A stretch of DNA of 64,000 nucleotides, from contig OY820579.1 in NCBI GenBank assembly GCA_963681965.1, positions 640,001-704,000 on the forward strand. Direction: 5' to 3'. The position numbers and the translations under genes were made by a program. A model generated the notes under the pieces. The model worked only from the letters and a program-made list of their open reading frames with translations. It was not told the DNA's origin and did no database searches. The first letter of the stretch is position 1, and every line of letters starts with the position of its first letter. The DNA is from a bacterium. GTDB lineage: Bacteria; Electryoneota; JAOADG01. Shown here piece after piece: positions 1-34,477 of this stretch.

Positions 1-152
1 AAATCGCGCGCGACGTTCAAATTGACGTCAGCTTCGAGCAGAATCTTGCGAATTTCACGCAGTGTTTCCCGGACCTGCTCTTCGCTCAGACGTCCGCCAC
101 CACGCAGTTTCTTGAAAAAGCCTTCCAGCCGATTCGACAGTTGCTCGAACAT
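1..152 (-). CDS. ffh: Signal recognition particle protein Ffh, N-terminal part (runs off window start)
   Basis: Manual minus-strand translation from ATG at 152: MFEQLSNRLEGFFKKLRGGGRLSEEQVRETLREIRKILLEADVNLNVARDF, the typical SRP54 N-domain (LLEADV). Not in the ORF track because it is truncated. Confidence 0.92.
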   Translation of the reverse strand, partial: MFEQLSNRLEGFFKKLRGGGRLSEEQVRETLREIRKILLEADVNLNVARD

Positions 153-213
153 AGCACCTTTTTATCGTAGCCGACAGCAATCGCACTGGAGCCAATCCAG
201 TGTCACCATCCGC

Positions 214-702
214 TTAGTGTTTTCCAAATCGATTGATAATCGTGTCAATGATATTCGTGGTCGAACGTTCCGGAACCAAATCCACCAACTCGACACAGCC
301 ACCAGCCGCCATAACCGCACTCGCACCGGCGATTTGCTCGACCGAGTAGTCGGCGCCTTTCACGAGTACATCCGGCAACAGCTTTTGATACAGCGCTTCC
401 GGGGTAGGTTCGTCGAACGGTATAACCGCTTCGACCACCTTCAACGACACCAATAATTTCGCACGGTCTTCCCAAGGCACCAACGGTCGCTTATCGCCTT
501 TAATGGCTCTTACCGATGCATCGCTATTCAGAGCGATCCACAATCTTCGCCCGTAGGAAGCGGCTTTTTCCAAATATTCGATGTGACCTCGATGTAAGAT
601 ATCGAACACACCATTGGTCATGACGAGGCGCATTCCAATTTTGCGGTACGACAACCGCAACGCCAGCGCTCGCTCCGGCGTAAAAATCCGGTCTTCAAAC
701 AT
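214..702 (-). CDS. rfaE2: D-glycero-beta-D-manno-heptose 1-phosphate adenylyltransferase (RfaE domain II / HldC)
   Basis: TNGVFDILHRGH (HIGH-like), LNSDASVRAIKGDKRP, LVKGADY, STTNII motifs. Confidence 0.92.
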   Translation of the reverse strand: MFEDRIFTPERALALRLSYRKIGMRLVMTNGVFDILHRGHIEYLEKAASYGRRLWIALNSDASVRAIKGDKRPLVPWEDRAKLLVSLKVVEAVIPFDEPTPEALYQKLLPDVLVKGADYSVEQIAGASAVMAAGGCVELVDLVPERSTTNIIDTIINRFGKH

Positions 703-17455: not shown

Positions 17456-19549
17456 TTACAGATTTACAACTAATCCATCGACTGCAACTTCGAATAATGG
17501 AATGGAACTTGTCATCGCGGCAGTATGCCATTCCAGAATATTTTTTTCTTTCGCTGCCGGAATATGTGTTAGAACGATTCTAGGAATCCGGTGTTTTGCC
17601 GCTAGATCGATTGTTGCCTGTGCCGGAATGTGAGTTGCTTCGATCAACAGTAGATCGGCATCGGAGAGATATTGCTCCACCTCGTCGAGATTCGGAATAT
17701 CCGATGGGTAGACGATGAGGCGATCGGCGATACGAATCCGGAAACCGTTACTGACACAGCCGATCTGCAGCGGATCGCACCACTCGCGATACTTTTCAAG
17801 GTGCGTCGTCGGAAAAGTATCCAATTTCATTGTTTCGTCGGAATATCCTTGCACACCCAGCGGGTGAAACGAAAATGGAAACGACAATCGTTGCTCATGC
17901 AGGTAAAGGTTGCGATAATAATTCCGGAATATCTCGATTTTGTCTTCAGGTAAATAAATTGCTAGCGGTGTCTTGCGCTTCGCGAGATGAAGCATCTGCA
18001 ACAACATCGGCAAGCCGGAAACATGGTCGGGATGGGTGTGCGACAGAAACAGTGCGCGCAGTTTCGAATGATCGATTCCGAGTCGTAAAATCGTTCGCGC
18101 CACATCTTCACCGGCATCTATTAGATAACTAGCGGTGTCAGTTTCTAACCAATATGCCGACGGGGTACGATCGACTGACGGCATCCCGGAACCACTGCCG
18201 AGAACGGTGAGTCGTACACCTTGAATGTTTCTCGGTTCACCATGAGTACCGAGCATGCGATGACCGATATCGTGACGATAATGTTTCCCGGCAAATTGAA
18301 TCGCTTGCGCCAATTCGAATGCTGCGCGTTGCGCTTCCAGCGTCGTTTTACCGGCACCGATCGCATTCAACACTCGTCCACCGGCAGTAACTAATTTACC
18401 GTCTTCACCGAGCTTCGTGCCGGCATGAAAGAGGATTTGCGAAGCTTTGCATTTCGGGAGCTGAATCGGGGTTCCCGAAACTGGTGAGCCGGGATAACCG
18501 CGTGCGGCGAGTACTACACAAAATTGAATCAGATTTGGTTTAGCGAGCATTTTCCAGTCGCCGGACTGCCAACCGTAGCGACCTTGCAATTCCGATAGTG
18601 TTCCGTTTGCGGTCGCGAGTAGCAGTTCCAACGTATCGCAATTCAGGAGTGGCAGTAACGATTGTGTTTCGGGATCGCCGAAGCGGACATTGTACTCCAA
18701 CACATACGGTTCATCGCCTACGAACATTAGTCCAATGAACAATACTCCGCGAAAAGGTATACCACGTTTTTTCATGGCATTCAACGTCGGCTCGACGATG
18801 CGTTTGATCGTTTGCTGCAACCGGGAATCAGTGATTGCCGGCGATGGTGTACAGCTTCCCATCCCGCCGGTATTCGGTCCGCGATCGTCCTCCAGCATCC
18901 GTTTATGATCCTGCGACGGTGGCAGTATTTGATAACTCTCCCCATCGGAGAGGACGAATAGCGATGCTTCTTCACCATCGAGATACTCTTCGATGACAAC
19001 GGTTTTACCGGAATCGCCGAGTTTCCCGTCGCGCAACCACGCGACTAGTGTCGCATCCGCTTCGGATTCGTCGCGGGCAATCACGACTCCTTTACCGGCA
19101 GCCAATCCCGAGGCTTTGATCACGACCGGGTAGTGCATCCAGTCTTCCAGATAATTTTTCGCCGAATTGTAATCGGTGAAGGTCACAAATTTCGCTGTGG
19201 GAATGTGGGCTTCGTGCATCAGCGCTTTGGAAAATGCTTTCGATCCTTCCAGTTGCGCGGCAGCGGCGGATGGTCCGAAACAGGCGATACCGCGGGCTTC
19301 CAGCCGGTCGACCAAACCGAGAATTAGTGGTACTTCGGGACCGATTGCTACCAATTCGATCCGATTTGCCAGGACGAATTGTTCGATTGCGTCAAGATTG
19401 TCCGCCTTGATGGCGACGCATTCCGCGACTTCGGCGATACCGGGATTGCCCGGTGTGCAATAGATTTTTGGATGTTGCGATGATTGTGCCAGCGACCATG
19501 CCAGCGCATGCTCGCGACCACCGGAACCGATTAAAAGGATGTTCTTCAT
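17456..19549 (-). CDS. purD: Phosphoribosylamine-glycine ligase fused to a C-terminal RNase Z/AtsA-like metallo-beta-lactamase domain
   Basis: GSGGREHAL, GLAAGKGV, QDHKR, GPNTGGMG, EYNVRFGDPE, HYRHDIG, then LGSGSG, IDAGE, SHTHPDH, PSD, LIEAT, LTH in one 697-aa frame. Confidence 0.9.
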   Translation of the reverse strand: MKNILLIGSGGREHALAWSLAQSSQHPKIYCTPGNPGIAEVAECVAIKADNLDAIEQFVLANRIELVAIGPEVPLILGLVDRLEARGIACFGPSAAAAQLEGSKAFSKALMHEAHIPTAKFVTFTDYNSAKNYLEDWMHYPVVIKASGLAAGKGVVIARDESEADATLVAWLRDGKLGDSGKTVVIEEYLDGEEASLFVLSDGESYQILPPSQDHKRMLEDDRGPNTGGMGSCTPSPAITDSRLQQTIKRIVEPTLNAMKKRGIPFRGVLFIGLMFVGDEPYVLEYNVRFGDPETQSLLPLLNCDTLELLLATANGTLSELQGRYGWQSGDWKMLAKPNLIQFCVVLAARGYPGSPVSGTPIQLPKCKASQILFHAGTKLGEDGKLVTAGGRVLNAIGAGKTTLEAQRAAFELAQAIQFAGKHYRHDIGHRMLGTHGEPRNIQGVRLTVLGSGSGMPSVDRTPSAYWLETDTASYLIDAGEDVARTILRLGIDHSKLRALFLSHTHPDHVSGLPMLLQMLHLAKRKTPLAIYLPEDKIEIFRNYYRNLYLHEQRLSFPFSFHPLGVQGYSDETMKLDTFPTTHLEKYREWCDPLQIGCVSNGFRIRIADRLIVYPSDIPNLDEVEQYLSDADLLLIEATHIPAQATIDLAAKHRIPRIVLTHIPAAKEKNILEWHTAAMTSSIPLFEVAVDGLVVNL

Positions 19550-20021: not shown

Positions 20022-22115
20022 TTAAGATGACCGCTTCTTCCGATTTACCGCACCTAATTTTACCCGATTCGTGGTACCCTGCTTGCCACGTTTCGTCAAT
20101 CCTTTTTGGTCGGGTTGAATACCCAGCACATCGATCGCCTCTCCGCGCAACAGCGCAATCCGGTCGCGTAGCGCGGCAGCGCGTTCAAATGAAAGTGTGC
20201 GTGCGGCTTCTTCCATTTCCGCTTCCAAGCGTTCGATCAACTCTTCCCGTTCCCATTCGGAGAGTTCAGTGCGAATCGATGTGGTCTTCTCCGGTTTGTC
20301 GATCCGGTCGGTGGCATCTTTCACGCCGATCATTATATCGGAGATCGATTTGCGGATCGTGGTTGGAATGATTCCGCGCTCGGTGTTGTACTGCACTTGT
20401 TTTTCGCGACGCCGATTGGTCTCGTCGATCACTTTCCGCATCGATTCGGTGACGGTATCGGCATAAAAAATCACTTTTCCGGCGCTGTTACGTGCCGCGC
20501 GTCCTGCCGTCTGCATTAGCGATCGCGCACTGCGGAGAAATCCTTCCTTATCCGCATCGAGAATTGCAACCAGCGCAACTTCCGGCAAATCGAGCCCTTC
20601 GCGCAAGAGGTTGACGCCGACCAGCACATCGAATTGACCGATCCGCAGATCGCGGATAATATCGATCCGTTTCAGCGATTCGATTTCACTGTGCAAATAC
20701 TCGACTCGGATACCGTTGTTCCGCAAAAAAGTCGTGAGATCTTCCGACATCCGCTTGGTCAGAGTAGTTACTAACACCCGCTCGCCACGCAACACGACCT
20801 GCTGAATTTCCGCCATCAAATCATCGATCTGATGTTCAGTCGGTTTCATTTCGATAATGGGATCGAGTAGTCCAGTCGGTCGCACCACCTGTTCGACCAC
20901 GACCCCTTCCGATTGGGTCAATTCGTAATCGCTTGGAGTCGCCGACACAAATATTCCCTGTTTGACAATCGCATTCCATTCATCGAATTGCAACGGTCGG
21001 TTGTCGAGTGCACTCGGCAGCCGGAAACCGTATTCGACCAACGTCTCCTTGCGGTGACGGTCGCCGTTGTACATCGCGCGGAGCTGCGGGATCGTGACAT
21101 GCGATTCGTCGATGAACACCAGCATGTCGTCCGGGAAGTAATCGAGCAGACAAGCGGGGCGCATTCCCTCATCGCGTAGCGACAGGTGTCGCGAATAATT
21201 TTCGATCCCACTGCAGAATCCGACTTCGCGCAGCATTTCGAGATCGAATTTACAGCGTTGTTCGATACGTTGCGCTTCGATTAATTTTCCGGCACTCTTA
21301 AATTCTGCAATCCGGTCATCCAGCTCTTTGTTGATGCGACCCAGCGCCTCTTTCATGGTCGCAGGAGACGTCACGAAGTGCTTTGCCGGGAACACCACCA
21401 ATACCGGCAATTCGGACAACACTTCGCCAGTGAGTGGATCGATGCGCCGGATTTTTTCGACGACGTCGTCATTCAATTGAATCCGGTAGATCTCCTGTTC
21501 GTATGCTGGATGAATCTCGATCACATCGCCGCGCACCCGAAATTCACCGCGTGCCAACTCGAGATTGTTGCGCGAATAATAAATATTCACCAGATGCTGC
21601 ACGATTTGATCGCGGGTAATCGTCGCACCGAGATCGACTTGGAGATATTGCGTGGCAAACTCTTCCGGACTACCGAGACCGTAAATACACGACACCGACG
21701 CGACAATCAGTACATCCCTTCGAGAAAGCAGCGAAGCGGTGGCTTTCAGTCGCAACCTGTCGATTTCGTCGTTGACGTCGGTCTCTTTCTCGATGTAGAT
21801 GTCTTTCGAAGGAACGTATGCTTCCGGCTGATAATAGTCGTAATAGGAGATGAAATATTCGACGGCATTGTCCGGAAAGAACTGACGGAACTCGCCGTAA
21901 AGCTGAGCGGCAAGTGTTTTATTATGACTGAGAATCAACGTCGGTCGCTGGAGTTGGGCAATGATATTCGCCATCGTGAAGGTTTTGCCGGAACCGGTGA
22001 CACCAAGCAACGTCTGCCACGGCAACCCTTGCTGGATACCGGTGACGAGCGCAGCGATCGCTTCCGGTTGGTCGCCTTGCGGAACCAAGTCGGTTTTGAG
22101 TTCGAACTGAGGCAT
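20022..22115 (-). CDS. uvrB: Excinuclease ABC subunit B
   Basis: GDQPEAI, LLGVTGSGKTFT, YYDYYQPEAY, DESH, LLREGLDLPEV, C-terminal UVR domain FERAAALRD. Confidence 0.97.
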   Translation of the reverse strand: MPQFELKTDLVPQGDQPEAIAALVTGIQQGLPWQTLLGVTGSGKTFTMANIIAQLQRPTLILSHNKTLAAQLYGEFRQFFPDNAVEYFISYYDYYQPEAYVPSKDIYIEKETDVNDEIDRLRLKATASLLSRRDVLIVASVSCIYGLGSPEEFATQYLQVDLGATITRDQIVQHLVNIYYSRNNLELARGEFRVRGDVIEIHPAYEQEIYRIQLNDDVVEKIRRIDPLTGEVLSELPVLVVFPAKHFVTSPATMKEALGRINKELDDRIAEFKSAGKLIEAQRIEQRCKFDLEMLREVGFCSGIENYSRHLSLRDEGMRPACLLDYFPDDMLVFIDESHVTIPQLRAMYNGDRHRKETLVEYGFRLPSALDNRPLQFDEWNAIVKQGIFVSATPSDYELTQSEGVVVEQVVRPTGLLDPIIEMKPTEHQIDDLMAEIQQVVLRGERVLVTTLTKRMSEDLTTFLRNNGIRVEYLHSEIESLKRIDIIRDLRIGQFDVLVGVNLLREGLDLPEVALVAILDADKEGFLRSARSLMQTAGRAARNSAGKVIFYADTVTESMRKVIDETNRRREKQVQYNTERGIIPTTIRKSISDIMIGVKDATDRIDKPEKTTSIRTELSEWEREELIERLEAEMEEAARTLSFERAAALRDRIALLRGEAIDVLGIQPDQKGLTKRGKQGTTNRVKLGAVNRKKRSS

Positions 22116-22224: not shown

Positions 22225-23742
22225 CTATTCGTTCCACTCGTCGTTGCGGTGGCGAGGCACAAACTGCCACGAACAGAGCCGCCAGGAAATTCGCCCTGAC
22301 GCGGTTGCGTCCATCACAAATGGGGGGGGAACATACTTGAAGCGCTCGTCGTAGAGGTAGCCTTTGTTATAGCCCGTTCCAAAATTGTAATAGTGGTGAA
22401 CAATTCCGCGACGGCGTTGTGCCAGCGCGCCACGAATATAAATATTCCCGCGCTCGTCCGGGGCGTAATTGGTCGGAACGGTTCCGGGGATGTTTTGATC
22501 TTCAAAGGTGAAACTCGCATTGAGGGCGATAATCTGTGCGCAAACTGCAATATCGCGCTGACCTTGTTGCGATGGCGACCATTGTGCCCCATTTCCGCGA
22601 CCATTTGCCGGGACATCTGCCACGAGGATACCGGTCTCGGGTTGAGTCGAGTCGCCCGTTGGCTCGGCGGCTTCGCTTAAGATGGTCATCATCGAAAAGA
22701 ATCGGGTCGTATCTGGCATATAGGGAGGAGACTGACAGTCCTCATACACCATATTGTCCATTAATCGGATCGAATTTTTCGCTCCGATTGCGACCCGCCC
22801 GGCGACATAACCACTAATCCAGAGCGTACCATCGCAGAAGATCGGATAATCCACTGCAGGATTCCATGACAAATTGAAATCGGATGCGCCTCTCCGATAA
22901 GTCGATGGAGTACCGGTTTGCCACGACCAGCCATCGGCGGAAGTACCATGAAAATACAATCCGAACGTCCGATCGGAGTGATTATTTCCCATTAGCCACG
23001 CGCCACTACCGGCTGCCGCCGAACGTAAATATTCCGCCCGATACGGAAAGTCGATTCTCGAGGTATTTAACCGAAAACCCTTCCGGAAAATGGCATTTCC
23101 CGGATTACCCATAAACGATTGTGCGGTTGAAGAGACCACGTCGTAGAAATTGCCGCCAATCATCGCGATTTGCGAGTTGGAATGCACCCGACCGCGCAAA
23201 GTGTCGCGCTCCCAAAAATAGATAAAGTCGCCAAACCGGGTCTGTTCGATATCGGTTAGATAAAAATAATTGCTGAAAAATTGACGCTGAATAATCAGAC
23301 GCGCTTTGCGTCTCACTTCGTGTTTGTGTCCCAGAAAATCGTTGTACTCCACCGCACCGGTGGCGGTGAGCACGAATTCAGTAGCGAAATTGGAAAGCGT
23401 CGTCGAATGAAGAGTGGAAAACCGCTGCGTTGCTTTCACCATAGGACGATAATAGCGCCCCATCCCTTCGATGATGCCATCGTTGAAAGTGGTGATCGAA
23501 TAGGCGGATAAATCGGTCGGGCGGGCATTGCGCATGTATCCCAGCGGAACTTGAATCACCGCGGCTTGTGCTACGTAATATGCTTGGGTTATGGCGATTT
23601 GTCGGCGCGCATTTAACTGCGCTGCCACTTGCCACTTCAGATATGCCAGCGATGTCAGCAACAATAGTGTCGACATTGCCACAGCAAACAGAAGCGAGTG
23701 ACCTCGGGAACGATGTGGGATATAGGGATGCCGTGTCATCAC
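22225..23742 (-). CDS. PilX-like minor pilin / pilus assembly protein with a large C-terminal globular domain
   Basis: RSRG|HSLLFAVAMSTLLLLTSLAYL class-III-like leader and helix, QAYYVAQA (PilX_N-like), LTATG; later GRVHSN, DERG..G, GTGYNKGYLYDERF...PPPF, terminal W-containing strand. Confidence 0.72.
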   Translation of the reverse strand: MMTRHPYIPHRSRGHSLLFAVAMSTLLLLTSLAYLKWQVAAQLNARRQIAITQAYYVAQAAVIQVPLGYMRNARPTDLSAYSITTFNDGIIEGMGRYYRPMVKATQRFSTLHSTTLSNFATEFVLTATGAVEYNDFLGHKHEVRRKARLIIQRQFFSNYFYLTDIEQTRFGDFIYFWERDTLRGRVHSNSQIAMIGGNFYDVVSSTAQSFMGNPGNAIFRKGFRLNTSRIDFPYRAEYLRSAAAGSGAWLMGNNHSDRTFGLYFHGTSADGWSWQTGTPSTYRRGASDFNLSWNPAVDYPIFCDGTLWISGYVAGRVAIGAKNSIRLMDNMVYEDCQSPPYMPDTTRFFSMMTILSEAAEPTGDSTQPETGILVADVPANGRGNGAQWSPSQQGQRDIAVCAQIIALNASFTFEDQNIPGTVPTNYAPDERGNIYIRGALAQRRRGIVHHYYNFGTGYNKGYLYDERFKYVPPPFVMDATASGRISWRLCSWQFVPRHRNDEWNE

Positions 23743-23875
23743 GTTCTCCGATATTTTCTCAATGTCTTGGAAATCCGGTGGAGAACACTATCAAATGAAA
23801 CAATATTTATACTTAAAATTCAATTATGCAAGCGGAAAATCGAAACTTCCAATTTTTCTTGAGACCTCCTCGCAA

Positions 23876-25012
23876 CTACCATTCAACAATCGGGATCGAA
23901 AACGGCGCTCGCTGATTGGTAAATCGAGTGTCGTAAGTCATGACTTTCCCATAGCCCGTGCCCTGATGGACAGTCGAATGCAAACAACCCCGCTTTTTCT
24001 GCATAATACTACCAGTTACATAAATCGTTCCCCGCTCATCGGGTCGCGACTGGCTGCGGTAAGCATCAACCGAATCGTTCTGATCTTCGAACGTAAAACT
24101 ACCGTTTAATGCAATGATCTGTCCGTGAATGGCGATATCCCGGTGATCTTGACTGGAAGCGGAATTTCCTCCTCCATTTTCCCGACCATTCACAGTATTG
24201 TTCGCGATCAGTACACCGCATGGTGGTACATACGTAACGCCATCGTAGGAGTATTCGTAGGCTTCGCTGATAAGAGTGATCGAACTACTGGTGTTAATTG
24301 GCACTTGATAAGGATATTCAGAGCATTGTCCATCTTGATAAGTAAGATTATCCATCAGACGGATATTGCCCACAGCACCGATTCCAACTTTACCAAATAT
24401 TTGTCCGTCAATCCACAACTCGCCTTCGCAAAAAATCCCGAACGGGGTACTTGGATTCCAGGTAATTGCACCGGCTGCTTGCGACATATCATGCATCGGA
24501 GAAGGGGTTCCGGTCCGCCATCGCCACATCGTTGCGGTAGTACCATTGAACCATAAGCCATAGGAATACCGCCGCGAAGACAACCACCGTCCACCACTAC
24601 TGGCAGCCCGCCGCAGCTCGGTCGCTTGCGTCGGAAACACGACTTGAGGCGCATTGATTCGAACGCCCGCCGGAAGCGTCATCCGAACGGGTTGTAACGA
24701 TCCGCCGATGATCATCGAGTCGCAAATTCGATTTAAGGTCGGCGGCATACTGTATAAATCGTGGTTCGTCCGAATCCAGCCGACAATGCCGGTACGCGTC
24801 CACATCGAAGTATAATCGCGCTGATGCATGAGTTCGTCGTCACTGATATAGAGATAGCTGCTGGAATAATCGGGACGCGCCAGTACAAACGTCGGAAACA
24901 GCAGTACAATCAATGTCAAGGTATAGAATGATAACATTACCCACTGTTGTCGCAAGCAATGAGTGTTCACTAAAATCGCGGAATATGTTCGAGAGAACAT
25001 GTCTGCCTCCAT
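23876..25012 (-). CDS. Secreted paralogue of the PilX globular domain (copy A3)
   Basis: Signal peptide ...FVLA|RPDYSSSY; FCEGELW, IRLMD, ITLISEA, FTFEDQND, DERG, GTGYGK..YDTRF, RAPFSIP. Confidence 0.75.
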   Translation of the reverse strand: MEADMFSRTYSAILVNTHCLRQQWVMLSFYTLTLIVLLFPTFVLARPDYSSSYLYISDDELMHQRDYTSMWTRTGIVGWIRTNHDLYSMPPTLNRICDSMIIGGSLQPVRMTLPAGVRINAPQVVFPTQATELRRAASSGGRWLSSRRYSYGLWFNGTTATMWRWRTGTPSPMHDMSQAAGAITWNPSTPFGIFCEGELWIDGQIFGKVGIGAVGNIRLMDNLTYQDGQCSEYPYQVPINTSSSITLISEAYEYSYDGVTYVPPCGVLIANNTVNGRENGGGNSASSQDHRDIAIHGQIIALNGSFTFEDQNDSVDAYRSQSRPDERGTIYVTGSIMQKKRGCLHSTVHQGTGYGKVMTYDTRFTNQRAPFSIPIVEW

Positions 25013-25025
25013 TTTCCCAAATGGG

Positions 25026-26159
25026 TCAGTTGGTTATTGGAATTGCAAATGGCGCCGGACGATTGCGCCACCGTTGATCGTACCGCATTACTTTGATATA
25101 ACCGGTTCCACCGTGAGTCGAGCGATGAAGATACCCCTTGCGATACTGCATGATGCTGCCGTGAAAATAAATATTGCCACGCTCATCCGATCTTTGCAGG
25201 GATTGATAAGCGTCAGCGGTGTCGTTCTGATCTTCGAATGTTACGCTCGACCTTAGTGCTATGAGTTGTGCCGTGATTACAACATCGCGACGGTTTGTGC
25301 TGTCGAGTGGATAGGTACTACCGTTATCGCGACCATTTTCCCAAGTATTCGCAATCAAGATACCCGTATTCGGGGTGTTCCTATAATAGTAGTAAGGTTC
25401 GTTAACTTCGCTGATGAGTGTAATCGAGTTCGATGAAAACGGCGGTATCAACCAATTGGTAGCTGCAGTGGCATCGATACACCGCAAATCATCCATGATC
25501 CGGATCGATCCTGATGCGGCAATTCCCAATCTACCGCAAACAACCCCTTTGATCCATAATCTGCCATCACAGTAGATCGGATAGGTATCGATCCATCGCC
25601 ACGAAAAACTACCCATCGCTTCGGATTCGATTCCCATCGTCGACGGGGTTCCCGTGCGCCACCGCCAGTAGGTGGCGGTACAGCTATCGATAATCAATCC
25701 GTAAGTATATCTGTCCGATTCCGTGTTAAGATATCGTCCATAATATCGGACGAGGCGTCGAATCGAATCGGCGCGCGGTGAAAAACTGTAGTAGAGGGCG
25801 TGCTCGGCATAACCCGGATGGGGTAATCCTGCAAAGGTGGATCCTGTGCGAGAAGTAATTACACCACTAGTCGTCACGAATCCATTGAATATTGCGCCGG
25901 AGTGTACACCAATATCATGGTTGGAGCGAACCGGTCCATTTACTGTATCGCGACCCCTATACCAGACATATTCAAAATATCGGGTTTGTTCATTCTGCGT
26001 CAGGTACAGGTAACTACTAGAATAGTTTGGATCGGCAAGGAGTGGGAGCGCGAAAACACAAGTGAATAGTGTTGTAAAGAGTATGATCGCTCGATACCGG
26101 AGTAATTTTTGTCTGATCACAACCAAAGTCTCTTCTATTGTTATCATCATCACACACAC
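25026..26159 (-). CDS. Secreted paralogue of the PilX globular domain (copy B2)
   Basis: Signal peptide ...PLLA|DPNYSSSY; same conserved blocks; ends RNRPAPFAIP. Confidence 0.75.
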   Translation of the reverse strand: MCVMMITIEETLVVIRQKLLRYRAIILFTTLFTCVFALPLLADPNYSSSYLYLTQNEQTRYFEYVWYRGRDTVNGPVRSNHDIGVHSGAIFNGFVTTSGVITSRTGSTFAGLPHPGYAEHALYYSFSPRADSIRRLVRYYGRYLNTESDRYTYGLIIDSCTATYWRWRTGTPSTMGIESEAMGSFSWRWIDTYPIYCDGRLWIKGVVCGRLGIAASGSIRIMDDLRCIDATAATNWLIPPFSSNSITLISEVNEPYYYYRNTPNTGILIANTWENGRDNGSTYPLDSTNRRDVVITAQLIALRSSVTFEDQNDTADAYQSLQRSDERGNIYFHGSIMQYRKGYLHRSTHGGTGYIKVMRYDQRWRNRPAPFAIPITN

Positions 26160-26369
26160 TCACTGTTTTCATCATTTTTTTTCATTCGTTGAGCGTTGAT
26201 TTTATCGTCTAGTCAATGAAAGATCGAAATTGCATACGGTGCGGATTGATTCTGCCAACCGCTCGCGATCACGAATTCGCTGCGATAGTACTTCGTTCAA
26301 TCCTGCGACGATTTCTTGATCCATTTTCGATACAGCTTATTGGTATCCGACATCCGTTTCACCTAAACG

Positions 26370-27482
26370 TCAGCGTTCGACGATCGGAATCGAAAATGGT
26401 GCGCGGACATCGCGAAATCGCACATCCCAGATCCAATCCTTGTCATAACCCGTACCCGCATGTGTCGCGCGATGAAGGTAGTTTCGTTGTTTTTGCATGA
26501 TACTCCCGTGGAAATGTAACGCTCCCCGCTCGTCGCTTGTTATTATCGTACACTGGTATGCATCGTTCGTATCGTTCTGATCCTCAATTGTAAAACTCCC
26601 GTTCAGCGCAATTAGTTGTGCAGTAATAACTACATCATTCCGTTCCGGGTGATTCACGCCAATAAATCTTCCATTTTCGCGACCATTTTCCCAAGTATTC
26701 GCAATCAATATCCCCTGCCATGGAATCGGTCGATCGGTTGTGTAGGGAATTTCCCCTGCTTCGCTGATCAGCGTGATCGAATTCGGAGAGTTGACCGGTA
26801 TTCGCCAACCGGTCTCCGAGGTCGCGTCTTCACACCGAAGATCGCCCATTATCCGGATACTTCCCGCGGCGCCAATTCCCAACTTCCCGCGAGTTATCGC
26901 TTTCACCCACAACTCACCATCGCAGAAAATCGGAAAAGCCCGCGTCGTATCCCAATGCAGGGTGGTAATCGCTTGCGATGGGTCGCCATAGTGTGAGGGA
27001 GTACCGGTAGCCCATCGCCATGCTATTGCAGATTGACCTTCGAGCAACAGTCCATAAGTATAATGGTGTTGATAAGAGTTCAACCAGTAACCATTTCTGG
27101 CGGCAGCGTCACGCAGCTCGGTTGCCTGTTGTGGAAAGATGACTTGCCGGGCGTGCTCGACAAGCCCGACCGGATGAATTCCTCCCGAAATCACAACACC
27201 ACCGACAAAGAGTGAATCGGTAAAGTATTCCCACGCATTTATTATACTTAAATCATGATTGGTTCGAATTCGCCGTGGGAGTGTGTCCCTCATCCAAAAA
27301 GTCTGATAATCGCCATAGCGACACTGTTCTTCGTCGGTGATATAAAAATAACTACTCGAGTATGGTGGTCGCGCACACACTGAGTTCGATAAAAGCGAAC
27401 CAACCAAGCAACTCAGTACCATCCAGCAAATCGCAATGGATCTCATTTGATCTTTTTTCATCATCGCATTTGTCCTCGTCAA
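26370..27482 (-). CDS. Secreted paralogue of the PilX globular domain (copy A2)
   Basis: Signal peptide ...SVCA|RPPYSSSY; same conserved blocks; ends RAPFSIPIVER. Confidence 0.75.
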   Translation of the reverse strand: MTRTNAMMKKDQMRSIAICWMVLSCLVGSLLSNSVCARPPYSSSYFYITDEEQCRYGDYQTFWMRDTLPRRIRTNHDLSIINAWEYFTDSLFVGGVVISGGIHPVGLVEHARQVIFPQQATELRDAAARNGYWLNSYQHHYTYGLLLEGQSAIAWRWATGTPSHYGDPSQAITTLHWDTTRAFPIFCDGELWVKAITRGKLGIGAAGSIRIMGDLRCEDATSETGWRIPVNSPNSITLISEAGEIPYTTDRPIPWQGILIANTWENGRENGRFIGVNHPERNDVVITAQLIALNGSFTIEDQNDTNDAYQCTIITSDERGALHFHGSIMQKQRNYLHRATHAGTGYDKDWIWDVRFRDVRAPFSIPIVER

Positions 27483-27533
27483 TCGTCACCACAAAATCAT
27501 CAAATACATTCAGCAATTCGAACCGGGTAAGTA

Positions 27534-28664
27534 TTAGCGTTCGACGATCGGAATCGAAAATGGTGCCCGTTGTGTTAAAAATCGGGTATCGTACACCCAT
27601 TTTACATCGTAACCGGTTCCACCATGGGTCGAGCGATGAAGATAACCCGCCCGGTTCTGCATGACACTACCATGAAAATAGAGATGACCGCGCTCATCGG
27701 ATTGAGTAATACTTTGATAAGCGTCGGTTGAATCGTTCTGATCTTCAAAAGTGAAATTTCCGTTGAGTGCGACAATTTGTGCCGTAATTACTACATCGTT
27801 GCGTTCCGGGTGTTCCCAACCGAATTGCGATCCATTTTCGCGACCATTTTCCCAAGTATTGGCAATGATCACTCCTTGCCACGGAACCGCGCTACCGGTT
27901 GAATTGGACATCTCGCACGCTTCACTGATTACTGTGATCGAATTAGGCGAGGTTGCAGGTACTAGCCAATTGCTTGACATAGTCGCGTCTTCGCATCGAA
28001 GATCGCCCATAATGCGGATGTTTCCTGCAGCCCCAATACCCAGCTTACCACGCGCGATACCCTTCACCCATAATTCACCATCGCAGAATATTCCGAAGGT
28101 CCGAGAAGTATCCCAATTTAACATTCCTATTACTTGCGTCCGATCACCCATCGGCGACGGCGTCCCCGTGTGCCATCGCCAAATACTGCCAACTTGACCA
28201 TCGATCGTCAAGCCGTACACATACTGTTTTCGATACGAACTCAGCCAGCGACCATGAGATGTCGCGCTATCCCTCAATTCGGAAGCCATGATTGGAAATT
28301 CGATTTGACGAGCATGCTCGATTAACCTTGGAACATGGGGAAATGGCGGGTTATCGCCAAGCGCGACTCCACCGACAAAAAACGAATCGTTAAAATCGTG
28401 CCATAAATTTCGACTGGTGATAAAGAATTGAAAATTATGGTTGGTGCGCATCCGACGGGGTAATGTATCTCCGGTATAATAGAACAAGTAGTCCCCATCG
28501 CGTCGCTGCTCTTCGTCGGTCACCATGAAATAGCTGCTTGAGTAGGGTGGTCGTGCCAAGATTAAATTCGGCATCGGTACACCGATCAAACAGATTGCCG
28601 TGACGACAAAACCAATCGCACACCTGATTCGTAGATATCGTTTCATCATAGTATCACTCGTCAT
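27534..28664 (-). CDS. Secreted paralogue of the PilX globular domain (copy A1)
   Basis: Signal peptide ...LILA|RPPYSSSY; same conserved blocks; ends RAPFSIPIVER. Confidence 0.75.
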   Translation of the reverse strand: MTSDTMMKRYLRIRCAIGFVVTAICLIGVPMPNLILARPPYSSSYFMVTDEEQRRDGDYLFYYTGDTLPRRMRTNHNFQFFITSRNLWHDFNDSFFVGGVALGDNPPFPHVPRLIEHARQIEFPIMASELRDSATSHGRWLSSYRKQYVYGLTIDGQVGSIWRWHTGTPSPMGDRTQVIGMLNWDTSRTFGIFCDGELWVKGIARGKLGIGAAGNIRIMGDLRCEDATMSSNWLVPATSPNSITVISEACEMSNSTGSAVPWQGVIIANTWENGRENGSQFGWEHPERNDVVITAQIVALNGNFTFEDQNDSTDAYQSITQSDERGHLYFHGSVMQNRAGYLHRSTHGGTGYDVKWVYDTRFLTQRAPFSIPIVER

Positions 28665-28676
28665 CTCTTCGTATTC

Positions 28677-29810
28677 TCATCGATTAAACAGAAAAATTGC
28701 ATAGGGAGCAGGTCGATTACGCCACCGTTCATCATACCGATAAATTTTATTGTATCCCGTACCACCTTGTGTATTGCGATGAACGTAGCCTCTGCGATAT
28801 TGCATGATGCTACCATGGAGAAAAATGTTTCCGCGTTCGTCGGGACCGGGAACACAGATACCGGCATCGTTTGTATCGTTCTGATTCTCGAATGTAAAAC
28901 TGCTTCTTAATGCAATAATTTGAGCGGTAATGACAACGTCTCGACGCTGACTATTATCCGATGGAAAAAGGCGACCATTCTGGTGACCGTTCTCCCAGCT
29001 ATCGGCAATGAGGATTCCCGTATTGGGCGCTTTTCGATCATTGTCAGGTGGCTCATCAGCCTCGCTGATAAGGGTGATTGAGTTGATTGAATTGGCTGGA
29101 ACAAGCCACTGTGTCTCGACCGTTGCATCTTCGCAGCGCAAGTCTCCGACGATACGAATCGATCCCTCCGCGCCAATACCAATTCGCCCTCGCACAACCC
29201 CTTTTACCCACAGACACCCGTCGCAAAAGATCGGAAATGGTGATCCATACCACCATGAAAAACTACCTAGCGCTTCCGATTCAATTCCCATTGTAGAAGG
29301 TGTACCGGTATGCCATCGCCAGTATGTAGCAACCGTCCTATTTATCTCCAATCCATAGGTATACTGATAATGATTCGTCGAAAACCACCGCCCACCCCGA
29401 GATGCAACGAGTCGCAAACTATCCGCATTCATGGGAAATGGAACTCGACCGGTTTGTTCGCGATAGCCCGGACGAGGTAAACCGGCAAACGTCGATCCCT
29501 GCATTGAGTTGATATGACCGCCAGTCGAGACGAACCCGCTGAAGTATGCACCCTGATGAACGGGAATATCGGAATTGGAATGGATTGGATACATGACGGA
29601 ATCGCGACTCCAATAATAGAGGTAATCGGTAAATCGCGTTAGTTCCTGATCGGTGAGTAGACAGAAGTTGCTGGAATAAACCGGTTCTGCATAAATGGTG
29701 AGACAAACCGGGAAGAGAGTGATTAACAGAGTGTATATTAATAGGTTCCAACAATGAACCCGGTTGAAACTCTCTGAGTACATCATCATACTATCCTCAT
29801 CCATCTTCAA
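28677..29810 (-). CDS. Secreted paralogue of the PilX globular domain (copy B1)
   Basis: Signal peptide ...TIYA|EPVYSSNF; same conserved blocks; ends RNRPAPYAIF. Confidence 0.75.
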   Translation of the reverse strand: MKMDEDSMMMYSESFNRVHCWNLLIYTLLITLFPVCLTIYAEPVYSSNFCLLTDQELTRFTDYLYYWSRDSVMYPIHSNSDIPVHQGAYFSGFVSTGGHINSMQGSTFAGLPRPGYREQTGRVPFPMNADSLRLVASRGGRWFSTNHYQYTYGLEINRTVATYWRWHTGTPSTMGIESEALGSFSWWYGSPFPIFCDGCLWVKGVVRGRIGIGAEGSIRIVGDLRCEDATVETQWLVPANSINSITLISEADEPPDNDRKAPNTGILIADSWENGHQNGRLFPSDNSQRRDVVITAQIIALRSSFTFENQNDTNDAGICVPGPDERGNIFLHGSIMQYRRGYVHRNTQGGTGYNKIYRYDERWRNRPAPYAIFLFNR

Positions 29811-29990: not shown

Positions 29991-30410
29991 ATGAAAACGA
30001 TTACTAAGTGGGTCGATGGTCTGCAAATGGTGTCCAATTCCGAAGCAGGACACGGATTACCGCTTGCATCGCGCCTTTCCGACAGCGAACCGTTAAATGG
30101 GATCCGTCCAGTCGAACTGTTACTCCACGCCCTTGCCGGGTGCAGTGGCATGGACGTGATATCGATATTGCAAAAGATGCGCCAACCGATCCGGAAATTC
30201 TCGATCGAGACGGATGGCGAGCGTTCCGAAACGCACCCGAAGGTCTTCACCAAAATCGCAGTCGTCTACAAATTCACTGGAAAAGGGATTGATCCGGCAG
30301 CCTGCGAAAAGGCAATCAAACTGAGCGAAGAGAAGTACTGTTCGGTGAGTGCGATGTTGCGAAAATCGTGTGAGATCACTACGCGATTCGAAATCATCGA
30401 GGAAGAATAG
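29991..30410 (+). CDS. OsmC/YhfA family protein
   Basis: RPVELLLHALAGCSGMDV, HPKVFTKI, LSEEKYCSV (two conserved Cys). Confidence 0.9.
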   Translation: MKTITKWVDGLQMVSNSEAGHGLPLASRLSDSEPLNGIRPVELLLHALAGCSGMDVISILQKMRQPIRKFSIETDGERSETHPKVFTKIAVVYKFTGKGIDPAACEKAIKLSEEKYCSVSAMLRKSCEITTRFEIIEEE

Positions 30411-30427: not shown

Positions 30428-32299
30428 CTACCGAACAACCAGCACTGGAATCTGCAGTTGGTGACGAACGGTATCGATCGTTTCACCGCGGAAGAGATCG
30501 CCGAATAGACGGTGTCCGTGCGCGCCCATCACGAGCAGATCGTTGCCGTTTTTTAAGACGAACCGCACCAGTGCGACCGAGGGCTCGCCGTGGAGTAACT
30601 GGATCTCCACCGGTATTTCCATTGCGCGAATTTCTTCAGCAATTTCTTCGAGATACACCATATCACCGCGGGCATGTTCATCGTCGGCATCGCCGTATAC
30701 CTGTGCCGACGCGGTATCAACCACGTGGATCAGCGTTACAGTTGCCTCTTCCGCTTTCGCCATCCGGACGGCATAGCTGATCACTTTCGCATCGGCATGG
30801 CTCCGGTCAAGTGCCACGGCTATATTATTCATCCGGTACGACTGAATATTCGCAATCACGTGCGTGGCGCGGGTTTCCGGTTGTGCTTTCCAGCCGTGAT
30901 GCTTTCTAAAAAACGGAACCAGCACGATATATCCGAGTCCGCCAAACAGTAGCGCGACGAATATCAGCAATCCCAATGACAACGGCAAAGAAAGTCCATC
31001 ACTTATCCAACCGGCAATGGAATCGTAAACCAATTTTCCGTTCAATGCCGTAATCAATAATCCGCTGATCCACGCCGCGACTTTCACCCACTGAGCGTTG
31101 ACGAATGTTCCCATTTTTACGCGATTGCTGGTAAAATGGATCAACGGGAAGATCGCAAATGGTAATTGCAAACTTAACACGACCTGACTAAGCAGCATTA
31201 ATTTGTAAGTACCACTATTACCCATTAAAGCGATCACCGCGACTGCCGGAACGATCGCCAGCGAGCGCGTAATCAGTCGCCGGAGCCACGGACGCAATCG
31301 AACCTCGACAAACCCTTCCATCACAATCTGACCTGCCAGTGTTCCGGTTAGTGTCGAACTCTGACCCGCAGCAAGCAGCGCCAAACCAAACAGCTTCGGT
31401 GCCAATTGACTGCCAATCAACGATTCCAGCAACTTATTCGCTTGCTGAATTTCAGTGACGACAACTCCATTTTTGTAGAATACCGTCGCGGCAACGATCA
31501 GAATTGCGACATTCACAAAAAATGCCGCATTCAGCGCAATGGTTGTATCGATCAAATTGTATTTGCAGGCATCGGCTTTACTCTCGACGTAGTGCGAGAT
31601 TTTCCGCGTCTGCACCAGCGCCGAGTGAAGATACAGATTGTGCGGCATCACCGTCGCGCCGATCATACCCAGTGCAATGAAAAGTGCGCCGGTTGGAAGC
31701 GTTGGCAGAAAACCGGTTGCGATTTCCGGGAGGGGTGGTTTAATCAAAAATAACTGAATCAGGAAACTGATTCCGATGGTGGAGACCATCAATAAAATGA
31801 AGCCTTCAATCTTGCGAATACCCAATCGCTGAATTGCAAACAACAGGAACGTATCGAACAGCGTGACGAGACATCCCCACAACAGCGGCAATCCAAACAA
31901 CAGATTTAATCCGAGAACGGTACCTAGTACTTCGGCAAGATCGCAGGCGATAATCGCTATTTCACAGATGATCCACAAAAAAATCGCAATCGGTTTGGGA
32001 TATTCGGAGCGGCATGCTTGTGCCAAATCTTTTCCGGTCGCAATTCCAAGTCGCGCCGCCAATGTTTGCAGCAACACCGCCATCAAATTCGAAAGCAGCA
32101 ACACCCAAATCAGTGCAAATCCGAACCGCGAGCCGCCCTCCAAATCGGTCGCCCAATTGCCGGGATCCATATAGCCGACGCTGACCAGATACGCTGGTCC
32201 GAAAAACGCAAAGAGACGATGAAACGTCCGTTTCCGGTCGGTGGAAACGGATGCATTCACTTCGGACAAGGATTTTGATGATGGTGCTGACATAATCAA
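30428..32299 (-). CDS. mntH: NRAMP divalent metal transporter MntH with C-terminal universal stress protein domain
   Basis: GYMDPGNW, GATVMPHNLYLHS, GQSST, then IAVALD...HVV...G.P...LLVMGAHGH...G (USP). Confidence 0.92.
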   Translation of the reverse strand: MIMSAPSSKSLSEVNASVSTDRKRTFHRLFAFFGPAYLVSVGYMDPGNWATDLEGGSRFGFALIWVLLLSNLMAVLLQTLAARLGIATGKDLAQACRSEYPKPIAIFLWIICEIAIIACDLAEVLGTVLGLNLLFGLPLLWGCLVTLFDTFLLFAIQRLGIRKIEGFILLMVSTIGISFLIQLFLIKPPLPEIATGFLPTLPTGALFIALGMIGATVMPHNLYLHSALVQTRKISHYVESKADACKYNLIDTTIALNAAFFVNVAILIVAATVFYKNGVVVTEIQQANKLLESLIGSQLAPKLFGLALLAAGQSSTLTGTLAGQIVMEGFVEVRLRPWLRRLITRSLAIVPAVAVIALMGNSGTYKLMLLSQVVLSLQLPFAIFPLIHFTSNRVKMGTFVNAQWVKVAAWISGLLITALNGKLVYDSIAGWISDGLSLPLSLGLLIFVALLFGGLGYIVLVPFFRKHHGWKAQPETRATHVIANIQSYRMNNIAVALDRSHADAKVISYAVRMAKAEEATVTLIHVVDTASAQVYGDADDEHARGDMVYLEEIAEEIRAMEIPVEIQLLHGEPSVALVRFVLKNGNDLLVMGAHGHRLFGDLFRGETIDTVRHQLQIPVLVVR

Positions 32300-32395: not shown

Positions 32396-34231
32396 CTACT
32401 TGAGCAATACGACTTTCATCACTTCGCTATAGCGTCCCGCCGTAAATCTTACGAGATACACGCCGGAAGCGAGATTCTCGCCGTTGATCCGGAACTCGTA
32501 TGCTCCCGGTCCTGCCAATTTGCGCGTTTGCTCCAAAACAGATTTACCCAACAGATCGTACATTGCCAAATGCGATTCACATGCCGACGGCACATGACAG
32601 CGAATTACCGTCGATGCATTGAATGGATTGGGATATGCCGGTTCCAACTTAAATTCGGTTGGTAGTACCGGATCGTCGACGCCATTTAATCGAATTGCGA
32701 CTGAAATCGCCGCAGAATAGAACGAATCGGGGTATTGTGCAATCATCAACAAAGCAGAAGATGCGGTATCTCCAGTAACGGTCCAGCGCAAAGAATCGTC
32801 TGTCGTAAATCCGATTCGCGTAGTACGACTGTTGCGAATCACCTTCACGATTACATTGACGCCTTCACTGTTTGCCCACCGGATCGTGTGGAGTGTATTC
32901 ATGTCCCATGACTCGCCGCGTGCCGGACTGATGATCGCCAGCGGTGTGAGCGGACCCTTGATAATGAAGGTCGGCGAAACACCGAAGATCGTCGAATCGG
33001 TTAGCGATATCACGCGAATGACACAAGGCGAATTGACGAGATTGAACGGATTGTATACTCGCCAGGTATATTGTCCATCGGATACCGCAGCACGACCGAT
33101 GGTTGTCCACGATTGCGGGGTCGCTCGCGAAATTTGGATTTTTACGCTGTCTTCGACGTTAATGCTATTCCATCCAATTGTGGTGTAATCGCGCGAGCGT
33201 AAGGTATCGCCGGTAGTCGGCGAGATCGTCCAAATGTGCTGTTGGAAATAGACTCGTCCAAAATTATAAATTACCAAGCCGCTTGAATCTGCCGCCAGAT
33301 AAGCAAAGCTGTCGCGAACCGCGATACCGCGAGCTACGCCGCGTGTTGTGTTACCCATCTTCCGGTGATAGGCTTGTAGCGATGGGTGTGATCCCGTATA
33401 GCTGGCAATATTCAATCCCGAGTCGGCTGATGCCCAGCAAACGAGCGTATCGATTTTTGTCACGCCGCGCGCATTGGGGATGGCAATCGAATCGACATAG
33501 CGCATTGAACTTGGACTGGCAATATTGACGATGTGCTGATAGGTTCCGGTAATGCTGGCAAGAAAGGCACGATTGCCGTCCACACAGACATCGATTACCC
33601 GCTCTCCGCCACCCGGAGCCAATGTTTGAAGAATCGTCATCGACCCAATACTGGTGACATCCACTGCCGTAAAACCGCTTGTGAATGACGCCACGTAAGC
33701 TGTTGTGCCAACCACTTTCACAGCATAGGCATTGCCGGGTGTGGTGATCGATCCCAACAACGACGGTGCCGCCGGATTGGCAACGCTGTATACATACAAC
33801 CCACCGACATCGGCGGCGACATATGCAATCGTGTCGATTACGCATACCCCTCGTACCGATCCGGTTGCCGGGACAATACTCCCGCGCGCTACCGGATTGG
33901 CTGGATCCGCGACACTGACAATCTGCAACCCACTAGCGCGCGTTGCCAGATATACCAGCGAATCGACCACATTCAAACCTTGAACCCAACCGGGACAATT
34001 GTAATGTCCAGTGATAATCGGAGTGGTCGGGTCGGTAATGTCGATCACCCGAAGTCCGCTGTCGTCGTTCGCGACATAAGCATAATTGCCCAGCACTTTT
34101 ACATCGTAAGCCTGTTCACCCGTTGTGCGCATCCCTACGCGCGACACAAACAGACTATCGACCGACCAGCAGGTAGAGGTCATAAGCAGAAGTACAGCAG
34201 AAATCATCAAACAATATTTCATCATTTTCAT
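32396..34231 (-). CDS. Secreted LVIVD-repeat beta-propeller protein with Ig-like domains and Por-secretion-tail-like CTD
   Basis: Signal peptide; repeats YAYVA..DSGL.VIDI.DP; C-terminal AYPNPFNAST...YDLLG...ASGVYLVR...VLLK. Confidence 0.85.
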   Translation of the reverse strand: MKMMKYCLMISAVLLLMTSTCWSVDSLFVSRVGMRTTGEQAYDVKVLGNYAYVANDDSGLRVIDITDPTTPIITGHYNCPGWVQGLNVVDSLVYLATRASGLQIVSVADPANPVARGSIVPATGSVRGVCVIDTIAYVAADVGGLYVYSVANPAAPSLLGSITTPGNAYAVKVVGTTAYVASFTSGFTAVDVTSIGSMTILQTLAPGGGERVIDVCVDGNRAFLASITGTYQHIVNIASPSSMRYVDSIAIPNARGVTKIDTLVCWASADSGLNIASYTGSHPSLQAYHRKMGNTTRGVARGIAVRDSFAYLAADSSGLVIYNFGRVYFQQHIWTISPTTGDTLRSRDYTTIGWNSINVEDSVKIQISRATPQSWTTIGRAAVSDGQYTWRVYNPFNLVNSPCVIRVISLTDSTIFGVSPTFIIKGPLTPLAIISPARGESWDMNTLHTIRWANSEGVNVIVKVIRNSRTTRIGFTTDDSLRWTVTGDTASSALLMIAQYPDSFYSAAISVAIRLNGVDDPVLPTEFKLEPAYPNPFNASTVIRCHVPSACESHLAMYDLLGKSVLEQTRKLAGPGAYEFRINGENLASGVYLVRFTAGRYSEVMKVVLLK

Positions 34232-34477
34232 CGGAAGTCCTCTTGGTTGGTTGTACAGAGGTAGGATCGCCGGCATCGGATATGCCGAATACGAGAAAGT
34301 AATAAGGATCCGATCGATATAAAAGACAAAAACAGTCAGTTGACAATATTTTTACTAACTGACGCCGGCAAAACGAAAACAATCGGATTTTCCGGATGGG
34401 GAGAGGGTATCGATTAACCGAGGAAAGTGTTTAAATCAAGCATTCTGTCATAATACTGTAACGAATTGACACATTCG

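Follow-up and report, generated by a model that had tools for sequence, protein, structure and literature searches.

Five free copies of a beta-solenoid head beside a predicted orphan tip pilin in an Electryoneota genome

The six-gene array and its products

We analyzed a 64,000-nt stretch of a genome from the bacterial lineage Electryoneota (GCA_963681965.1, contig OY820579.1), here called the window, which corresponds to 640–704 kb of a single 4.24-Mb contig. At 22225..29810 it carries an array of six paralogous open reading frames (ORFs), all on the minus strand according to the ORF listing and at exactly the coordinates given in the initial annotation, which had been made from the sequence alone. 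The gene next to uvrB encodes a 505-aa protein (long505) with a predicted pilin fold and an inserted beta-solenoid head, and the other five (c2–c6) encode that head without the pilin body. The features of the locus and the evidence for each are as follows.

22225..23742, minus strand: long505, predicted orphan solenoid tip minor pilin, 505 aa (ORF, AlphaFold2 (AF2) model, VIA-align)
nt 23284–23742, minus strand: long505 pilin leader, alpha-1 helix and sheet, aa 1–153 (approximate)
nt 22303–23283, minus strand: long505 beta-solenoid head, aa 154–~480 (approximate)
nt 22225–22302, minus strand: long505 last pilin strand and tail, aa ~481–505 plus stop (approximate)
23876..25012, minus strand: c2, free solenoid copy, 378 aa, N-terminus ...TFVLA/RPDYSSSY (ORF, alignment, tree)
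25026..26159, minus strand: c3, free solenoid copy, 377 aa, ...LPLLA/DPNYSSSY, sister of c6 (ORF, alignment, tree)
26370..27482, minus strand: c4, free solenoid copy, 370 aa, ...NSVCA/RPPYSSSY, sister of c5, AF2-modelled (ORF, AF2, VIA-align)
27534..28664, minus strand: c5, free solenoid copy, 376 aa, ...NLILA/RPPYSSSY, sister of c4 (ORF, alignment, tree)
28677..29810, minus strand: c6, free solenoid copy, 377 aa, ...LTIYA/EPVYSSNF, first gene of the array, sister of c3 (ORF, alignment, tree)
20022..22115, minus strand: uvrB, downstream flank (Pfam UvrB domains)
29991..30410, plus strand: osmC-like gene, divergent from the array, upstream flank and syntenic marker (Pfam OsmC, E 8e-20)

The gaps between the array genes were 133, 13, 210, 51, and 12 bp in order of rising coordinates, too short to hide a pilin body of ~150 aa. 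In a MAFFT alignment of the six proteins, 64 columns were invariant and the five short proteins shared 31–39% identity with long505, while pairwise identity among the short copies was 41–61% (61% for c4/c5, 57% for c3/c6). The blocks W.W.TGTPS, IFC[DE]G.LW, IG..G.IR, ITLISE, FTFEDQN, DERG, and GTGY.K..YD.R, previously listed as common to all six, were found with a few single-residue variants. Strands were somewhat better conserved than loops among the five free copies, and variation clustered at c4 residues ~78–107, 248–257, 268–277, and 308–317. The long505 gene stands between the five free-head genes and uvrB, not among pilus genes, and a Pfam scan of 46 window ORFs (12 + 34) found no other pilus gene, as the sequence had suggested. 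A promoter and terminator scan gave matches close to or under shuffled expectation.

Another assembly of the same organism calls c2 as a 214-aa gene (P0108) that diverges after about residue 130–134 in a frameshift-like manner. Eight sequencing runs were listed, none of them of RNA, and contigs of four runs were compared with the array. Those of X1 and X3 carry the intact 378-aa c2 of the window and match the array throughout, though they break at short repeated words; in X4 and X5 some of the array had no cover. In X4 one contig of low depth (340 nt, depth 7) omits c4, running from 26371, just past the c4 stop, to 27536 at the c5 3′ end over a 31-nt common stretch; this junction may be a one-copy deletion (four-copy) variant or an assembly-graph artefact.

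The N-terminus of long505 (...RSRG|HSLLFAVAMSTLLLLTSLAYL..., opening HSLLFAVAM) has a prepilin-like leader ending in Gly and then a hydrophobic stretch of ~20 residues, with QAYYVAQA further on. It has no Glu at +5, a residue that GspK/PilX-type pilins likewise lack. The AF2 model of long505 (87-sequence alignment, mean pLDDT 91.1, pTM 0.86) consisted of a helix at 15–72, a sheet at 83–153, a big all-beta domain, and a closing strand at 487–494. A Foldseek search of the PDB with this model returned only three chains at E ≤ 1e-3, all of them ComZ from Thermus thermophilus. VIA-align also ranked ComZ (6qvi) best, with Z 14.3 over 329 aligned residues (model 46..505) and the same pilin-like N-terminal helix and sheet, followed by ice-binding proteins (Z ~12–13, root-mean-square deviation (rmsd) ~3.2, ~190 aligned), the Streptococcus sanguinis minor pilin PilA (7o5y; Z 9.4, rmsd 2.6, 111 aligned, model 43..502), and the minor pilins TT_C0855 (Z 7.3) and XcpV/W (Z 6.8). 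The alignment of a small pilin across 43..502 shows the final strand coming back to close the pilin sheet, so that the solenoid is an insertion ahead of this strand. On its predicted fold, long505 is a putative tip minor pilin of the ComZ or cyanobacterial PilX type, with a triangular beta-solenoid resembling ice-binding proteins inserted before the last strand. Model and structural alignment agree with the earlier proposal of a pilin fold carrying an inserted globular domain.

The family assignments proposed alongside that fold fared less well. No Pfam PilX_N or N_methyl match was found in long505 at E ≤ 1, and NCBIfam ComGG_2 scored 17 bits against a cut-off of 40. Pfam DUF4900 (PF16241, gathering cut-off 29.4 bits) gave 18.4 bits in long505 and 18.9 in c3 and no match in the other four, all below the curated threshold. 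The DUF4900 match spans just the first ~50 solenoid residues and relatives score 20–28 bits, and precomputed Pfam annotation assigns PF16241 to pilin-fused relatives. The literature searched held nothing on DUF4900 beyond one unrelated preprint.

Among the free copies c4 alone was modelled (AF2, pLDDT 92.6, pTM 0.87), giving an N-terminal helix that corresponds to the putative signal peptide and then the solenoid as in long505. Against 48,161 chains, VIA-align again placed ComZ first (Z 13.1, 267 aligned), with four ice-binding proteins next (Z 10.8–12.3, rmsd 3.4–3.8, 181–194 aligned) and further rows at Z ≤ 6.0. Foldseek of c4 found nothing at E ≤ 1e-3 against the PDB or against viral models. 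None of the six proteins matched the ice-binding family DUF3494 at E ≤ 1, and there was no Pfam match to the Neisseria_PilC beta-propeller of PilY1/PilC-type proteins; the models are solenoids.

The alignment and the c4 model bear out the description of the five short proteins as the head domain alone, cut at both borders and placed behind Sec-like N-termini. Past the hydrophobic N-terminus, each free copy starts at the equivalent of FFSNYFYLTD in long505, which is the first solenoid strand, and ends 4–5 residues past the (A/P)PF motif at the end of the solenoid, without the last strand and tail; both borders had been read correctly from the sequence. Signal peptides were judged by eye from a charged n-region, 15–20 hydrophobic residues, and small residues at −3/−1. 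Putative cleavage sites were VLA/RP, LLA/DP, VCA/RP, ILA/RP, and IYA/EP, and no lipobox was evident by eye. From these N-termini, we infer that the five copies are probably cleaved Sec substrates that act beyond the cytoplasm.

Pilus systems, relatives and descent of the copies

A profile of the six proteins gave eight strong matches in the genome, the six of the array and two further pilin-fused paralogues at 370–373 kb (522 and 511 aa, 85% mutual identity). The latter lie in a canonical type IV pilus operon 290 kb from the array, which runs pilin, PilT, minor pilins of 192 and 243 aa, the 522-aa and 511-aa proteins, PilM, N, O, P, secretin, and a Wza-like exporter, with the PilB and PilC genes just upstream. 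Like ComZ, these paralogues thus adjoin minor pilins. The same operon in the related genome G002 has a single solenoid pilin. The free copies share 38–45% identity with the operon-encoded heads and 31–37% with the adjacent anchored head. A second secretin-bearing locus, of type IV filament or type II secretion-like character (G000:C1:3777066-3798201, L052 and L053, G000 being the window's genome), carries genes for a separate secretin, two T2SSE ATPases, a T2SSF protein, a PilM/N-like protein of great length, and a pair of small pseudopilin-like proteins. Encoded there too is a compact 408-aa pilin (L052 7066-8292, minus strand), the head of which belongs distantly to the solenoid family (DUF4900, 23.4 bits). 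The long505 gene would encode an orphan third tip pilin.

Elsewhere in the genome, a 766-aa protein (G000:C1:1505712-1508012; L011 514-2814, plus strand) has a sub-threshold DUF4900 score of 26.3 bits, a weak match to the solenoid profile, and no sorting tail of the type IX secretion system (T9SS); by sequence it may be another distant member of the family.

No gene for a headless PilX-type body occurred among the 27,351 open frames of the genome, which rejects the idea that the free heads are halves of a split pilin. The T9SS sorting domain Por_Secre_tail matched four window ORFs, in the 41305-45031 region (plus strand) and at 38669-39916 (minus), 48881-50314 (plus), and 32396-34276 (minus), indicating that the organism uses this system though no such signal is present on its solenoid paralogues. 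Among the four are an LVIVD-repeat protein and a member of a tandem ~620-aa pair whose ends are FlgD_ig-like; the second protein of this pair has FlgD_ig only.

Searched with HMMER against 1.84 billion representatives, the family gave 935 matches at E ≤ 1e-3 and 140 at E ≤ 1e-30, the best independent relatives reaching 1e-117. We classified 171 sequences, namely the best 150, earlier matches, and eight proteins of the genome itself; five were duplicates of own-genome proteins. The largest class (101/171) was C-extended, with the solenoid after an N-terminus of ~22 residues and followed by a C-terminal extension (median 269 aa). Pilin-fused proteins made up 33/171, all with the N-terminal pattern G-hydrophobic-...QAY(Y/F).AQ, head-only proteins 19/171, several of which may be fragments, and partial sequences 18/171. 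Por_Secre_tail was present at E ≤ 1e-3 in 39 of the 64 relatives scanned (36 reached the cut-off), often with Ig-like (HYDIN/ASH) or Beta_helix domains between the solenoid and the tail. This layout of T9SS cargo, with an N-terminal domain, an Ig-like spacer, and Por_Secre_tail, was found in none of the six window proteins.

A solenoid match (E ≤ 1e-20) was present in 39/41 related genomes, at least eight of which had three or more copies within about 15 kb. Records of metagenome-assembled genomes (candidate division KSB1, Caldithrix) include tandem arrays of four to five T9SS-type copies, and further arrays of four to six such copies lie at G015:C1:1512500-1531000 (L082), L059 1129-9038, and L066 2457-8901; several members of the array in L067 are split into shorter frames. 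Frames of head-only size occurred in 5/41 genomes (G000, G001, G003, G008, and G022). The initial annotation had named widespread head-only arrays as an argument against its reading. Head-only forms occurred in just those five of the 41 genomes, and most non-pilin members of the family, often in tandem, carry the T9SS sorting domain. A protein atlas search returned only unnamed clusters, one with DUF4900 on 16% of its members. The head family is large, mostly T9SS-fused, and often tandem, and it is not peculiar to this locus.

Copy numbers varied among close relatives. The window's genome has three pilin-fused and five free copies, G003 three and one, and G002 one and none; in the same-genus genome G001 the counts, five and two, are minima from 720 contigs. 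ORF checks covered every free copy in G001 and G003 and, among pilin-fused copies, three of five in G001, one of three in G003, and the only one in G002; the remaining pilin-fused counts are frames of 507–537 aa. In G001 a 68%-identical osmC stands divergent beside a single 392-aa free-head gene, and a second free head (394 aa) lies elsewhere. Variation in copy number beside osmC, which the initial annotation suggested looking for, is thus present, with one free head in G001 against five in the window. The G001 counterpart of the long505 gene (60% identical) stands by itself on a contig of 9.3 kb that has neither free heads nor uvrB. The free head beside osmC in G001 is followed directly downstream (L044 2714-6520, plus strand) by two paralogues of ~590 aa; these have CxxCH-like motifs close to the N-terminus and no counterpart in the window.

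Synonymous differences were saturated in all pairs tested (pS, their proportion, 0.70–0.79), and the nonsynonymous proportion (pN) among free copies was well below this at 0.26–0.45. DNA identity between copies was 60–80%, the longest near-identical tract, which c4 and c5 share at their 3′ ends, being 34 nt, and the anchored gene aligned to the copies at about 60–79% identity only over stretches of 34–48 nt. No relics of the pilin body or tail were found in or between the free-copy genes. Saturated pS, low pN, and the lack of relics together mark the copies as old, intact, and constrained; saturation with far lower pN excludes recent amplicons and pseudogenes.

In a careful tree of 37 rows the five window copies formed one clade (98/97) with the topology ((c6,c3),(c2,(c5,c4))), in which c6+c3 and c5+c4 were each supported at 100/96. 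This clade was nested in a moderately supported group (85/94) with two head-only proteins of relatives and one pilin-fused protein. The outgroup pairs had been picked from a quick tree, and their pairing is not independent evidence. The quick tree comprised 79 solenoid segments; five duplicates from the genome itself and two weak outliers had been dropped, and only one in three C-extended sequences was kept. In it the window's bacterial family was one clade (support 100) of 14 pilin-fused and 10 head-only proteins with no T9SS type, and the three architectures were interspersed, with at least 8–11 changes per label on the starred branches alone.

We labelled a second careful tree by genome (43 rows from ten genomes, two partial rows dropped). 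All eight copies of the window's genome formed one clade (100/100). The C-extended copies of G014 and G023 were each sister to the pilin form of their own genome (100/100), the pilin branch being short and the derived one longer, and the head-only copy of G008 was sister to a C-extended copy of that genome (100/100). These groupings suggest that non-pilin copies either originated on several occasions close to the resident tip pilin or follow it through concerted evolution, and that head-only forms arise by more than one route. The trees are unrooted here, and descent from pilin to non-pilin forms is the more parsimonious direction, repeated re-creation of an insertion between strands being unlikely. 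The initial annotation proposed that the tip domain was excised and then amplified. A single clade of window copies inside a pilin-fused clade fits that account, and its direction holds by parsimony only.

Interpretation and competing explanations

The anchored architecture is not new. In the available text of the ComZ report, the beta-solenoid comes after the penultimate strand and before the last one and has the ice-binding protein FfIBP as its closest fold (PMC6561018). All cyanobacterial PilX proteins, according to a 2026 report, carry a beta-solenoid at the same insertion point and with the same closest fold, are proposed as a pilus cap instead of PilY1, and occur as two or more paralogues per genome that serve different pili (PMC13759059). 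Free copies are where the window departs from both. ComZ is described as a single gene in a competence pilin locus, and the portion of that report available to us does not mention free head copies (PMC6561018), of which the window has five; the PilX proteins in the text at hand are pilin-fused only, some with extra distal domains, and it mentions neither head-only nor T9SS copies (PMC13759059). The literature searched, which included few subscription journals and no supplements, yielded no account of a pilin solenoid occurring as free or T9SS-coupled copies. The earlier statement that the arrangement is not a described system therefore stands for the free copies and falls for the anchored one.

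Two groups of secreted proteins invite comparison with the free heads. Ice-binding proteins (DUF3494/IBP-1; 3wp9, 4nu2, 6bg8) share the solenoid core (Z 10.8–13.2, rmsd 3.2–3.8, ~180–194 residues) and are secreted and stand-alone, as the free copies appear to be, but the window solenoid has ~330 residues and long loops, and nothing about it suggests ice binding. Tapirins of Caldicellulosiruptor (4wa0, 6n2b) are free beta-helix binders that bear signal peptides and whose genes adjoin a type IV pilus locus (bioRxiv 10.1101/359786). In idea, as soluble adhesins paired with a pilus, they are the nearest known counterpart. They differ in that the fold match is weak (Z 4.7–6.6; 4.7–5.9 with c4), they are not paralogues of a pilin head, their hosts are Gram-positive, and they bind cellulose.

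We read the array as an orphan tip pilin accompanied by five old exported copies of its head that work as ligand-binding modules, and assign this a probability of roughly 0.6. A free head would have arisen on the loss of both flanking pilin pieces and the gain of an ordinary signal peptide; the five copies would then have formed by duplication on the spot and been kept by selection, being made as proteins in their own right. Across the phylum-level group, the tip head would repeatedly have yielded non-pilin extracytoplasmic paralogues, often in tandem. In most lineages Ig-like domains and a T9SS sorting domain at the end would display the solenoid on the cell surface; in the window's bacterial family the non-pilin forms carry no C-terminal extension. 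The free solenoids would be soluble or loosely surface-associated binding modules that recognise the same ligand class as the pilus tip, with variable loops diversifying the binding of each copy, and long505 would give the pilus machine, whose operon lies 290 kb from the array, another tip to use. The array would be a variant, lacking the sorting domain, of a recurrent reuse of the tip head outside the pilus. The binding role is suggested by the position of the solenoid at the far end of the T9SS cousins, by the roles of tip receptor or cap held for ComZ and PilX, and by strong fold matches that are not enzymes.

Several observations weigh against this interpretation. Profiles A1 and A2, run against all PDB sequences, did not match ComZ at E ≤ 10; A1 found nothing meaningful there, and A2 found only entries with HYDIN-like Ig domains and T9SS tails, through the C-terminal columns of extended relatives. 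Kinship of long505 to ComZ is accordingly a matter of predicted fold and architecture. The signal peptides judged by eye may be uncleaved anchors, and with no T9SS sorting domain and no evident outer-membrane route the free copies may stay in the periplasm. Ten polar residues conserved across the three architectures (E166, D180, R240, D429, R431, Q442, H449, R450, Y458, and D465 in long505 numbering) could mark a catalytic rather than a binding site. The pilin-fused protein P0018 falls within the free-copy group (85/94), which leaves the pilin-to-free direction as the parsimonious order of events and not a proven one.

The alternatives are taken here in decreasing order of probability. That the free heads are partners of a type IV filament, docking on the tip in the manner of PilY1, CofJ, or TcpF, or are cargo pushed through the secretin, is unlikely, though the most probable of these alternatives. 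Type IV pili do secrete soluble proteins that bind tip minor pilins (TcpF, CofJ). The free-head genes lie directly upstream of the orphan tip pilin and are co-oriented with it, both of the secretin-bearing type IV filament systems in the genome include a solenoid pilin, and the free heads, unlike their cousins, have no T9SS signal and would need another outer-membrane route if they leave the cell. In ComZ, a neighbouring minor pilin is bound in the space between the two domains (PMC6561018). Against this, by an argument drawn from the same report, the tip is already about as wide as the fibre, and a head docked on it sideways would be hard to pass through the secretin. The genome also has no headless PilX-type body for a free head to complement, and the free-head genes of relatives have no constant pilus-gene neighbour. 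A complex prediction of long505 (30–505) with c4 (38–370), each with its alignment and run without controls, scored 0.00, a value that speaks neither for nor against binding.

A more speculative idea, in our judgement quite improbable, is that the tip head and its exported paralogues form a matched pair that diversifies jointly within each lineage. A cell's tip solenoid would then recognise the solenoids of its kin, or a ligand common to both, at their surface or in their matrix, a lineage-specific 'handshake' for pilus-driven aggregation or social movement. In the window's bacterial family, where the T9SS anchor would have been lost, a solenoid-tipped type IV filament would act as a piston that secretes the five free heads. 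Such a pairing would explain why non-pilin copies keep arising from or tracking the resident tip pilin and why they diversify in arrays.

That the solenoid is an enzyme, such as a beta-helix that cleaves polysaccharides, and is placed as a catalytic module at the tip of the pilus, on the surface (through T9SS), or free, is improbable. It would account for the polar residues that are invariant or nearly so across the three architectures, and the weaker fold matches of c4 (Z 4–5) include lyases, tailspike depolymerases, and epimerases; the ComZ report notes that hydrolytic enzymes are what beta-solenoids usually are (PMC6561018). The strong matches, however, are the non-enzymes ComZ and ice-binding proteins (Z 11–14 against Z ≤ 5 for enzymes). 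Most of the conserved residues fall at turns and within the C-terminal third, where their role may be structural. A match of the copies to a characterised enzyme family had been named at the outset as a reason to abandon the proposal, and none of the six proteins matched an enzyme family in Pfam or NCBIfam at E ≤ 1.

It is very improbable that the free heads are periplasmic competitors or regulators of tip assembly that titrate the minor pilin packing on the tip-pilin head. The Sec signal without an outer-membrane export signal agrees with this role, as does a solenoid surface shared with the ComZ surface that contacts PilA2 in the part of the report available (PMC6561018), but five long-kept, diverged copies exceed any titrating need, and cousins in other lineages are clearly surface-directed through T9SS. 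More improbable again is a role as decoys that soak up phages or predators binding the pilus tip. Its sole support is that the free heads copy an exposed tip domain and vary in their loops, whereas their low identity to the adjacent and operon heads would make them poor mimics, none of the 46 window ORFs is a phage- or defence-related neighbour, and c4 had no viral structure match. A repertoire of silent donor cassettes for antigenic variation of the anchored gene, another early proposal, is ruled out: the copies are tandem, co-oriented, and adjoin a gene of expressed type, but they reverse the pilS-like pattern of absent starts and long DNA identity, each having its own start codon and signal peptide, with low DNA identity to the anchored gene and purifying selection.

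Other gene fusions in the window and implications

Three further ORFs of the window are domain fusions that stand apart from the array. A 697-aa ORF (17456-19549, minus strand) joins a complete phosphoribosylglycinamide synthetase (PurD; GARS_N/A/C) to a C-terminal metallo-beta-lactamase-fold domain (Lactamase_B_2). In the 10841-12606 region (minus strand) a 409-aa ORF combines a Sua5/YciO/YrdC domain with a low-molecular-weight phosphotyrosine phosphatase domain; a 163-aa stand-alone phosphatase of the same family lies directly downstream, and both are beside a block of LptE and lipopolysaccharide/heptosyltransferase genes. The third, at 30428-32299 (minus strand, 623 aa), is an Nramp metal transporter with a C-terminal universal stress protein domain.

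Only recently were solenoid-headed tip pilins, among them ComZ and the PilX of cyanobacteria, identified as the cap and adhesin of type IV pili in bacteria without PilY1. Across a phylum-level group, the head of such pilins is not confined to the pilus and also occurs as T9SS surface cargo and as free, apparently exported arrays. The family is only partly and weakly covered by DUF4900 and deserves a proper definition. Soluble heads of 35 kDa are easy to express for pull-downs, glycan arrays, and DNA-binding assays, and if the free or surface copies bind what the tip binds, they would offer a direct handle on the tip ligand. Should the free heads turn out to be pilus partners or cargo, they would constitute a new class of accessory for type IV pili. 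If our interpretation is right, one binding module would be shared by two unrelated export systems.

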